DNA from: Halobacteriales archaeon
Lineage (GTDB): Archaea; Halobacteriota; Halobacteria; Halobacteriales; SKNY01
Direction of reading: 5' to 3'
DNA: 64,000 nt
Assembly: GCA_007118975.1 (NCBI GenBank)
Contig: SKQO01000019.1
Coordinates: 41,049-105,048, forward strand
Shown: positions 23,870 through 35,992 of the stretch, piece after piece
Layout: each line of letters begins with the position of its first letter
Position numbering within the stretch: the first letter of the stretch is position 1
Position numbers and translations under genes: made by a program
Notes under the pieces: generated by a model
Told to the model about the DNA's origin: nothing
The model's database searches: none
Seen by the model: the letters and a program-made list of their open reading frames with translations, nothing else

Positions 23870-23928
23870 GGGCCTGCTGGGTCGGGTCGGACCAAGATAG
23901 TTCTGGCCCACCGACGCACCAATCTTTC

Positions 23929-24293
23929 TGCGAGGAGAGAATCCCGCCGTTTACGGCGGACGTGATCCGACAACGCCGACGCAATCAACGTTCAACAGCA
24001 GCACGGGTATTTAAGTAGCATCGTGCCGTAACATAGCATACACTGAGGCGGCATGACCGCCCACCTAATCGGCCAATATCGGACTCCGAAAACCAGCATG
24101 TTCGAGACACTCTCGAACCGCTGTGGTGTCTCGGTTAGCAATGTAACTCCGAGTCCTCTGTCGGGATAGGAGTAACGGTGATGTGGCCCCGTCATCTGCC
24201 TGTCATGCCGACAGGTCGTAAACCAGTAAATATCCCAACACAGCGGCGCGGTGCCGTGGGAAGCCTCGCCGTTTACGGCGAGGAGGAGGTCAC
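23929..24293 (+). mobile_element. Miniature non-autonomous IS200/IS605 derivative (PATE-like) with internally deleted tnpB
   Basis: Near-identical subterminal hairpins CCGCCGT-TT-ACGGCGG (23944-23959) and CCTCGCCGT-TT-ACGGCGAGG (24264-24283); right end AGGAGGAGGTCAC; internal TTTAAGTA box; remnant resembling tnpB 3' ends (VTPSP..DRSNG). Left boundary approximate. Confidence 0.8.
24010..24017 (+). promoter_or_regulatory. Archaeal TATA box inside the mini-IS605 element
   Basis: TTTAAGTA downstream of the left-end hairpin, where the tnpB promoter is expected. Confidence 0.6.
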
Positions 24294-24313
24294 AGTGGCG
24301 TCAACCCACAAAC
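24140..24313 (+). ncRNA. Putative TnpB omega-RNA (reRNA/sotRNA) scaffold plus flank-derived guide
   Basis: Retained tnpB 3' region through the right-end hairpin and TCAC; guide would start at 24294 (AGTGGCGTCAACCCACAAAC). 5' end is a guess. Confidence 0.5.
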
Positions 24314-24325
24314 CACGCAAACACC

Positions 24326-25033
24326 ATGCGCGGCGATCCGTCCCTGGCGCGAATTCGAACCCTCTTCTCGGGAGCGGCGCCCCGTTATGACGTCGTGGTA
24401 CGGACGACCACGCTCGGGATGGATGTGCTCTGGAAACGACGGCTGCTCGCGACGATCCCGCCGGATCGCTCGTTTGACCGTATCGTCGATCTGGCGTGCG
24501 GGACAGGCATCGTGACCGAGGCGCTTGCAACTCGATATCCCGACGCCGACGTGATCGGGGTCGATCTCTCGGAGGACATGCTGGCGATTGCTTGGCGCCG
24601 ACTCACCCAGGAAAACGTCGAGCTGGTCCGCATGCGCGCCGAGGATCTGCATGCGCTCCGATCTGCCAGCGTCGACCTTGTCGTTGGCTCGTATCTGCCG
24701 AAGTACGTCGATCTCGACGAACTGGCACGATCCGTGACGGCGGTGCTAGACGAGCTGGGGGTAGTGGTGTTCCACGATTTTACGTACCCGCACCACCCCA
24801 TCTACCGATTCGGCTTCGACGTATACTGGGCCGCCCTGGCACGACTGCTCGATCGGTTGCCCGGATATGGACCCATCGCGGCCGACCTGAAACCACTCAT
24901 CGTCGAAAACACCGACTGGCCCGACCGGCTCCTGGGCGCACTCGAAACCGCTGGGTTCGACCGAACGACCCATCGCGTCCAGCCGCTCCAGATCGCCGCC
25001 ATCGTCACGGCCACGAAAGCGGGCAGGGGATAG
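24326..25033 (+). CDS. UbiE/MenG-like class I SAM methyltransferase
   Basis: FSGAAPRYD..TLGMDVLWKR, IVDLACGTG, GVDLSEDML; 4 nt upstream of a UbiA-family gene. Confidence 0.85.
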   Translation: MRGDPSLARIRTLFSGAAPRYDVVVRTTTLGMDVLWKRRLLATIPPDRSFDRIVDLACGTGIVTEALATRYPDADVIGVDLSEDMLAIAWRRLTQENVELVRMRAEDLHALRSASVDLVVGSYLPKYVDLDELARSVTAVLDELGVVVFHDFTYPHHPIYRFGFDVYWAALARLLDRLPGYGPIAADLKPLIVENTDWPDRLLGALETAGFDRTTHRVQPLQIAAIVTATKAGRG

Positions 25034-25037
25034 CCGC

Positions 25038-25952
25038 ATGGGTGCACAGATGGCAAGACTGGCCGGTGGTCTTTATCAGCTGTCTCGACCCGATCCGACA
25101 ATCTCGTGGGCTGTGGGTGCCTTCGCGATCGGCGCCGGCATCGCATTCGGTCGCTTAGGTGTCGCCATTCACTGGTGGGACGGCCTCATCGCCCTGGTGG
25201 GCGTGATCGCAGCCATCTCGTTCGGGGCCCACGGCCTGAACGACGCGTACGACTGGATGACAGGAGCCGATCGAGCTAGTCCCGGCGAGGGAACCGGCGG
25301 CTCGCGAGTCATTCCAGACGGACGGTTTACGGTTCGTCAGACGTTGCTCGTCGGCATCGCCGGGCTCGTTGTCACCGCAGGAATGGGCGTCTATTTTTAT
25401 CGGTTGTACGGCTGGCCGGTCCTCATCCTGACCGCCATCGGGGTCGGGGCTCCGATCCTCTACAGCGTGCCGCCGTTGGCCCTCGCCTACCGCCCGTTCC
25501 CTGAACTCGTCGTGGTGGTCCCCGCGCTGGTGGGCGTGACGGTGGGGAGCGAACTCGTGTTTTCGGGGACAATCACGGTTGCGGGGGTAATCGCCGGCTC
25601 GGTGCACGCGGCGTTCAGCATCTCGTGGTACGTGGTAAGTCGGGTGCCGGATTTTCACGCCGACAGGCAGGCCGGAAAGACGACCTCCGTAGTCCTGCTC
25701 GGTCTAGATCGAGCCGGGCCACTTTCAGGAGTGTATCTCCTCTCAGGTGGGCTTCTCGCAGTTGCTGCCGCGAGTATCATCGATCCGATATTCTTGCTGA
25801 GCCTTGTGTTCGGTGCACTTCTGGCGACGGGCCTCCGGACGCTCGAACCCAGGCGGCCACGCCAGGCCTCCCGCCTGCGATACCGGCAAATGCGTGTGTG
25901 TACGATTCATGCGTTCGCCCTCGCCCTGGCGCTGGCAAGGCCGTGGGGATAG
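25038..25952 (+). CDS. UbiA-family prenyltransferase, MenA-like
   Basis: SRP, LNDAYDW..GAD, GGSRVI, YSVPPLALAY, PDFHADRQAGKTT; multiple TM. Confidence 0.85.
   Translation: MGAQMARLAGGLYQLSRPDPTISWAVGAFAIGAGIAFGRLGVAIHWWDGLIALVGVIAAISFGAHGLNDAYDWMTGADRASPGEGTGGSRVIPDGRFTVRQTLLVGIAGLVVTAGMGVYFYRLYGWPVLILTAIGVGAPILYSVPPLALAYRPFPELVVVVPALVGVTVGSELVFSGTITVAGVIAGSVHAAFSISWYVVSRVPDFHADRQAGKTTSVVLLGLDRAGPLSGVYLLSGGLLAVAAASIIDPIFLLSLVFGALLATGLRTLEPRRPRQASRLRYRQMRVCTIHAFALALALARPWG

Positions 25953-34576: not shown

Positions 34577-35992
<1,416 letters not shown>

Follow-up and report, generated by a model that had tools for sequence, protein, structure and literature searches.

The 64,000-nt stretch of a Halobacteriales genome analysed here (the window) carries, at 23924-24293, a 370-bp protein-less element of the IS200/IS605 type, or PATE, in which a left end, a TATA box, a leader, an omega-RNA of the sot0042 type and a right end follow one another. 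It belongs to a family whose comparison points to selection acting on an RNA without a protein gene, and we consider it probable that this family is a guide cassette that TnpB loads in trans and that serves homing. The anatomy of the element, the family and its conservation are direct observations, as are the transcript ends of one homolog. The features of the window copy are these:

23920-23923, + strand: target motif CAAT, outside the element and one base off the class motif CTAT
23924-23959, + strand: left end, assigned from sequence and common to full-length tnpB elements
23938-23941, + strand: DNA-guide tetramer AGAA (across classes, AGAA pairs with CTAT and AAAG with TTAC)
23944-23959, + strand: subterminal left hairpin, the TnpA site predicted from sequence
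24010-24015, + strand: archaeal TATA box TTTAAG, 30 nt 5' of the inferred RNA start at 24040
24040-24140, + strand: 5' leader, conserved across the family, from the inferred RNA start at 24040
24141-24293, + strand: omega-RNA scaffold of the sot0042 type with shortened stems (Rfam match), inferred processed 5' end at 24141
24260-24293, + strand: right end; the flanks of the copies diverge directly past TCAC
24260-24263, + strand: DNA-guide tetramer GAAG of the right end
24264-24283, + strand: right hairpin
24290-24293, + strand: terminal motif TCAC of the right end
24294-24311, + strand: predicted 18-nt guide from the host flank, by analogy with VNG_R6334

The limits of the element were set by the starts and ends common to eight aligned copies of 370-372 bp, of which six are preceded by CTAT (the window copy has CAAT and one other CGAT) and seven end in TCAC. 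The tetramer AGAA was called by the rule of pairing between DNA guide and target that comes from work on IS608. CTAT is the motif in 26 of the 28 members of the class and also stands 5' of full-length tnpB elements of 1.45-1.85 kb in relatives (L081-L088, L091), which have the same left end and mostly the TCAC end. By every sequence criterion tested the window element is a PATE: near-terminal palindromes lie at both ends without terminal inverted repeats, both ends match those of the full-length tnpB elements, neither PF07282 nor PF01797 finds a match inside the 370 bp (tblastn was negative as well), and throughout the family a short 5' targeting motif, here in the variant CAAT, adjoins unrelated flanks without duplication of the target.

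An earlier note on this DNA had described a gap of ~365 bp from 23929 bracketed by two hairpins. Gap and hairpins are real, the size being 370 bp from 23924, and the 14 nt that the hairpins were said to share, CGCCGTTTACGGCG, lie at 23945-23958 and 24267-24280, with just one further occurrence in the 3.43-Mb genome. The TATA-type box TTTAAG was located at 24010-24015, and AGGAGGAGGTCAC indeed terminates at 24293, followed by the flank 24294-24313 as it had been quoted. The proposal of IS605-type ends, an own promoter and a scaffold with a flank-derived guide is borne out by the sequence and by the family. What did not survive is the idea of a local deletion that left a tnpB stub. The ATG at 24098, taken for the tnpB start, depends on a T at 24099 that is private to this copy (the class majority reads ACG) and lies within the 5' arm of a conserved hairpin. 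Likewise, the peptides VTPSP and DRSNG, in which a tnpB 3' end had been seen, are out of frame, with a TAG at 24167-24169. Since the ATG is private and the peptides are out of frame, the window element has no coding stub. Had the element arisen simply by deletion within a resident tnpB IS, it would have kept a start stub and its interior could be traced throughout to the parent, which is not what we find: this is an old mobile family with a conserved leader of its own, and the middle ~100 nt do not derive from tnpB.

The scaffold could be examined with covariance models, as the earlier note had proposed. Rfam sot0042 matches 24141-24284 with 53.5 bits (E=2.2e-12) over all 174 model positions. 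It stays short of the gathering score of 88 bits, since two stems are much reduced relative to the model. A further match, to HgcC, covers 24173-24306 (E=7e-4). sot0042 is the RNA of the 3' end of haloarchaeal tnpB, now viewed as an omega-RNA (PMC12558985). A pseudoknot is predicted between the loop GTGGCC (24183-24188) and the terminal GGTCAC (24288-24293), with six of six pairs possible in the window copy; the fold that TnpB binds includes a pseudoknot formed with the last bases of the scaffold (PMC10097598). In 53 sequences its pairs are kept at 99%, and two of them covary (U-A in 33 and G-C in 17; A-U in 27 and C-G in 25). Because this covariation mirrors three subclasses, which are clades in the leader and scaffold trees alike, it represents few events and may have been inherited from the parent IS.

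The 53 sequences are what remained of 83 clean RNAs (244-262 nt, leader to end) once those more than 93% alike had been removed; their mean identity is 69%, and in an alignment made from sequence only, 43 named pairs are 96.7% paired. Parsimony was applied to full elements whose flanks were long enough and whose left end could be recognised, 17 of the TCAC class and 43 of the main TCAA class. In changes per column, the spacers give 2.65 and 2.93 (TCAC) and 6.75 and 8.46 (TCAA) and the flanks 8 and 23, compared with 0.74 and 2.13 for the omega core, 0.86 and 1.52 for the leader core, 0.91 and 3.98 for the long leader hairpin and 0.75 and 1.03 for the right end (TCAC and TCAA, respectively). The omega core thus comes close to the TnpA-bound ends (0.75-1.14 in TCAC, 1.03-2.24 in TCAA), and the rate of change in scaffold and leader is lower than that of the element's spacers by a factor of about 2-5, a conservation that is inflated by the use of the leader core as search pattern and by the filtering of members on omega-core similarity. 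Double changes that keep a pair number 3 against 0.7 expected in the TCAC class (p~0.025) and 11 against 2.7 in the TCAA class (p~0.001), 10 of the latter 11 in the apical stem of the leader; total broken pairs are not clearly below the null (p=0.06 and 0.64). Scaffold pairing among the copies is conserved non-randomly, in contrast to the random decay that the earlier note had named as the opposite outcome.

The leader has two parts. The first, at 24043-24082, is a CTGA/TCGG stem around a GGCGG/CCGCC hairpin and a conserved 17-nt bulge, and the second is a long irregular hairpin at ~24084-24135 whose apical stem is 24100-24107/24111-24118. RNAalifold missed the long hairpin on the sequence alignment because the subclasses are shifted in it, and folds of single sequences with trees for each class were used instead; 36 of the 53 RNAs, despite their very different sequences, form this hairpin at z<-2. 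Rfam has no match to the leader at E<5 in the window stretch or at E<1 at seven loci, so that a known RNA or ribozyme was rejected as its source. An origin as a tnpB remnant (best E~0.03, in scattered frames) or as a tnpA remnant or 5' UTR was discarded too: the best tblastn match, at E=0.057, was to a non-coding upstream frame, and the leader profile matched none of the three tnpA loci of the host at E<10. The leader was not found ahead of tnpB in 106 haloarchaeal matches or in the parent elements examined.

The most direct view of the RNA comes from Halobacterium salinarum NRC-1, whose plasmid pNRC200 was found to carry, at ~267905-268286, a complete member of the TTAC/TCAA class. This element coincides with VNG_R6334, a non-coding RNA at 268030-268304 (PMC4615843, Table 2), and is 60% identical to the window copy over the RNA; the coordinates of the papers were taken as those of NC_002608.1, with which the published position of the right-end hairpin agrees. 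The 5' end of VNG_R6334 lies 30 nt past TTTTAC and 3 nt ahead of the leader motif, the equivalent of 24040 in the window, and its 3' end lies 18 nt beyond TCAA, that is, at guide length. The earlier note had anticipated a + strand RNA ending 15-20 nt past the element, and such ends are seen in this homolog alone. In the dRNA-seq data (Table S3 of PMC8303175), processing site TPS_19423_1 at 268136 (+ strand, p=0) falls on the very base at which the sot0042 match of the NRC-1 member begins, and TPS_8065_1 likewise marks the start of the tnpB-borne VNG_sot0042. The chance of so exact a coincidence is ~1%, given four filtered-in + strand sites in the element. The processed 5' end in the window was placed at 24141 because this is the equivalent base. 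The same table has + strand sites nearby at 267995, 268278 and 268285 and none at 268030, and since there is no processing entry there, 268030 is consistent with a primary end. The processed end could have been made by a host nuclease trimming to a stable fold; TnpB is known to generate 5' ends of this kind through its RuvC domain, and the purified apo protein does so on added RNA as well (PMC10278001). As the processed end is TEX-sensitive, self-cleavage of the leader is disfavoured. A strong processing site on the opposite strand was also noted at the 3' end of VNG_R6334 (L221:804, pNRC200 268303, - strand). In the literature searched, VNG_R6334 is named in one paper.

A pattern made from the window leader, scanned over 41 of the 64 parts of a contig collection, returned at least 119 loci, from which we estimate ~190 in total. 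At 99 of the 119 an omega core follows within 420 nt downstream, and the loci that share this plan are all haloarchaeal; the other 20 are, as judged by eye, 13 bacterial records, which we read as chance matches, and seven haloarchaeal copies that are cut or interrupted. No tnpB gene was found between leader and right end at the scan loci. TnpB matches occur at six of the 119, three outside the element, one in an IS nested in the promoter and two consisting of a tail that overlaps the scaffold, and one TnpA query protein found no match at the 119 loci, 39 of them with flanks of 300 nt only. Two main end classes are seen, one with DNA guide AGAA, target CTAT (26 of 28) and end TCAC, and one with AAAG, TTAC (56 of 58) and TCAA. 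Family elements have a median length of 373 bp (60 of 78 within 355-385), their right flanks are all distinct (89 of 89), and 91 of 98 members have a TATA-like box at -34 to -21, compared with 3 of 291 control 14-mers.

Several other arrangements came to light. At L152:1770-3370 a full-length tnpB element is inserted into the promoter of a family member. Inserts of ~50-100 nt sit in the terminal hairpins or in the pseudoknot loop (L110, L192, L193, L196, L201, L206, L087), and a similar one, in frame, is present in two tnpA genes of the host (contigs C35, C137); they resemble SMR-A repeats, which are said to target PATE palindromes. A second gene-less family, of ~0.5 kb, has a TTAT-like target motif, a TCAA end and an extra 5' hairpin, together with a variant of the leader and an omega-RNA with longer stems. 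Nine copies of it are in the host genome (C41:34096, C79:28798, C96:62392, C106:8713, C108:6849, C122:23734, C130:49996, C146:36838, C157:34), and it is present in other haloarchaea as well, with copies in 7 or more of 120 further genomes (L248-L257). These copies were located with a loose leader pattern, which gave too much noise across 121 genomes to judge prevalence and was used just for this. A third gene-less element (L089:298-770, genome G051), of ~468 bp, combines CTAT/TCAC ends with a different inner region and a scaffold of the type found in the L084/L086 TnpB clade. Phage records gave just one match, of 40 nt to the left end.

The host assembly is 78% complete with 60% GC, and its relatives at these loci are haloarchaea. 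A divergent xylose-isomerase-like gene flanks the window element on one side, and on the other stands a methyltransferase gene of the ubiE-like kind followed by a ubiA-like gene; the predicted guide at 24294-24311 falls within the 32 bp preceding the methyltransferase ATG at 24326. These ubiE-like and ubiA-like (prenyltransferase) genes, at 24326-25952, had no close relatives in a metagenome scan (best full-length match 32%), and a 260-aa ORF from a GTG at 24251 is an artefact of the insertion. Sibling copies and parents, which the earlier note had foreseen, do exist: two full-length siblings in the genome (C106, 82%; C146, 80%), besides a decayed one (C3, 67% over 254 nt), and tnpB-bearing elements with the same ends in relatives; full-length copies are present in 3 of 60 related genomes. 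The window copy differs from the class majority at 29 RNA positions, the second highest of 17, and shows wear in its target motif CAAT, in a left-hairpin change at 23960 and in stem 2, where there are two G-U and an A-C. The pseudoknot is intact, as is the TATA box, and the whole RNA folds at z=-3.1. It is probably weak or fading, and that it still homes is doubtful.

An allele without the element was not found in three genomes of the same genus or among 24 distant methyltransferase loci of a metagenome scan, none of them close, and the joint of the empty site was not found in the contigs of four sequencing runs. Four contigs from a single RNA run match the element; all are less than 95% alike to it and are thus other copies, and they may derive from DNA. 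Target motif plus guide has no second site in the host genome, which makes the empty insertion site the sole natural target; a guide aimed at another gene was rejected, the sites with at most 3 mismatches in 16 that exist never following CTAT. The genome has 22 TnpB zinc-finger matches and three TnpA matches, two with stops, and in the 78% that is assembled no clearly intact TnpA was seen. A candidate cognate tnpB, with the CTAT left end and 86 aa that are 85% identical to the TnpB of L081, is truncated where contig C68 ends; it is the only CTAT-class tnpB start in this 78% complete genome; a tnpB with a TCAC end lacks its 5' half. The window also contains, ~10 kb away from the element, a long-frame tnpB that belongs to another clade (C74:75819-76019, window ~34770-34970, - strand); it is unlikely to be the cognate, since the sot0042 search gave no match there.

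We propose that TnpA of another element inserts the mini-element behind CTAT, a movement in trans suggested by the conserved ends and the many unrelated insertion sites. Its own TATA promoter would then give a ~270-nt RNA made of leader, scaffold and ~18 nt of flank, as seen for the NRC-1 member and expected by analogy for the window copy. The leader would be removed at the first base of the scaffold, at the site mapped in NRC-1, presumably by the RuvC activity of TnpB. The loaded ribonucleoprotein would cut target motif plus guide at the excision joint or on an empty copy of the chromosome, and recombination would copy the mini-element back in. Such cut-and-copy homing is established for elements that bear tnpB, and its extension to a gene-less family is our proposal. 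As for the leader, its most likely role is to shield the untranslated precursor, or to present it, up to the point at which TnpB binds.

Other readings account for part of these observations. The RNA could be kept for binding or titrating TnpB or TnpA, or as a small RNA of the host, rather than for guiding. Mere binding would suffice to conserve scaffold and pseudoknot, competition for TnpA was proposed by Gomes-Filho and colleagues in 2015 (PMC4615843), where overexpression of a PATE RNA gave a growth gain, and the invariant single-stranded bases of the leader suggest another partner. We nevertheless think this unlikely, for a selfish element profits directly from homing and less clearly from titration, and the tail of the NRC-1 RNA has the length of a guide. 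Moreover, 82 of 86 family sites keep the target motif required by TnpB, although insertion by TnpA alone explains this too. Decidedly improbable, in our estimate, is that the DNA ends alone matter and that the interior is a passenger, forms hairpins in single-stranded DNA or is renewed by gene conversion with full-length ISs. Folding of the leader hairpin does show no strand preference (median z in the two main classes of -2.6 and -2.5 forward and -2.5 and -2.2 reverse). In genome G050 the four copies whose left part was covered (L075, L076, L078, L080), which sit at different sites, have all lost the TATA box, three full ones also sharing a damaged right hairpin, so spread is not always RNA-dependent. 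L093 and L202, which may be an ancestral form or a recombinant with a resident IS, join the leader to the long parent-type scaffold and indicate that recombination with parents happens. On the other hand, conservation of the scaffold and of the position of the TATA box far exceeds that of the adjoining spacers, the leader is equally conserved yet unseen in parents, the scaffolds of members differ from those of parents at fixed positions, and one member is transcribed and processed.

Very improbable, finally, is that the window copy has stayed at its site because it provides the downstream ubiE-like and ubiA-like genes with a portable promoter. Its right end lies 32 bp before ATG 24326 with no obvious TATA in between, the TATA box has been retained although the target motif drifted, and no T-run terminator was found, by a scan of bacterial type that is uninformative here; such a role cannot account for conservation across a family at 89 unrelated sites. 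Guide supply for homing in trans is the reading we favour. A wider proposal, speculative and taken as a whole rather unlikely, is that these elements are a class of their own in haloarchaea, RNA-only parasites of TnpB. A dedicated leader would enable a transcript that is not translated to capture TnpB in trans, and ends, DNA guides and pseudoknot would have been re-tuned in concert so as to exploit three or more TnpA/TnpB classes. Here the leader is seen in two divergent gene-less families and never ahead of tnpB. If this were true, the leader together with the scaffold, already trimmed by nature, would serve directly as a cassette for expressing guides in archaeal genome editing.

The stand-alone omega-RNA that has been demonstrated is reportedly that of IscB, with a 5' guide. 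The window family differs from the stand-alone OMEGA RNAs in its TnpB-type scaffold, 3' guide and processed leader, and the window element may, to judge from its parts, work in the same manner. The idea that gene-less IS605 derivatives draw on TnpB in trans is already in print (PMC10055086, PMC10691335). Meers et al. state that PATEs often encode omega-RNAs that would need TnpB from other ISs in trans (PMC10055086), and the PATE-like elements of Geobacillus stearothermophilus supply the homing model applied here; unlike the present family these are bacterial, and in the passages of that paper on the subject the point is a remark in the Discussion, with no test of loading in trans and no dedicated leader. 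Altae-Tran et al. (2023, PMC10691335) describe mobilised omega-RNAs without effector or transposase that are said to work in trans, and activity of an omega-RNA in trans was seen in a plasmid assay (bioRxiv 2023.11.20.567912). The haloarchaeal PATEs of Dyall-Smith et al. (2011, PMC3119063) resemble ours in their near-terminal palindromes without inverted terminal repeats, their outside 4-nt targeting sequence, their lack of an ORF, their IS1341-type ends and the small repeats inserted into their palindromes. Unlike here, they are treated as DNA elements, and promoter, leader and guide RNA are not described in the main account of them; the window family may be listed under an HqIRS number in Tables S8 and S9 of that paper. 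VNG_R6334 agrees with the window copy in TATA spacing as well as in leader, scaffold and right end; the window copy belongs to the CTAT/TCAC class and the NRC-1 member to the TTAC/TCAA class. PMC4615843 presents VNG_R6334 simply as an RNA from an intergenic region that has a tetraloop at the right end, and the left end, the leader, the guide-length tail and the meaning of 268136 are not discussed in the relevant parts of PMC4615843 and PMC8303175 (Ibrahim et al., 2021). PMC12558985, in the portions dealing with these RNAs, mentions neither PATEs nor R6334. In the literature searched, where an RNA motif without a name cannot be found by words, there was no description of the leader and no test of a natural TnpB PATE; the conserved leader and the NRC-1 test case thus appear to be what is new here.

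The NRC-1 member resides in a genetically tractable archaeon, and its published RNA ends fit promoter, processing site and guide length. The significance of the finding rests on the family and on this case, the window copy being an ordinary, ageing member. At stake is how elements in a polyploid cell share TnpB, a nuclease that normally processes the mRNA from which it is itself made.
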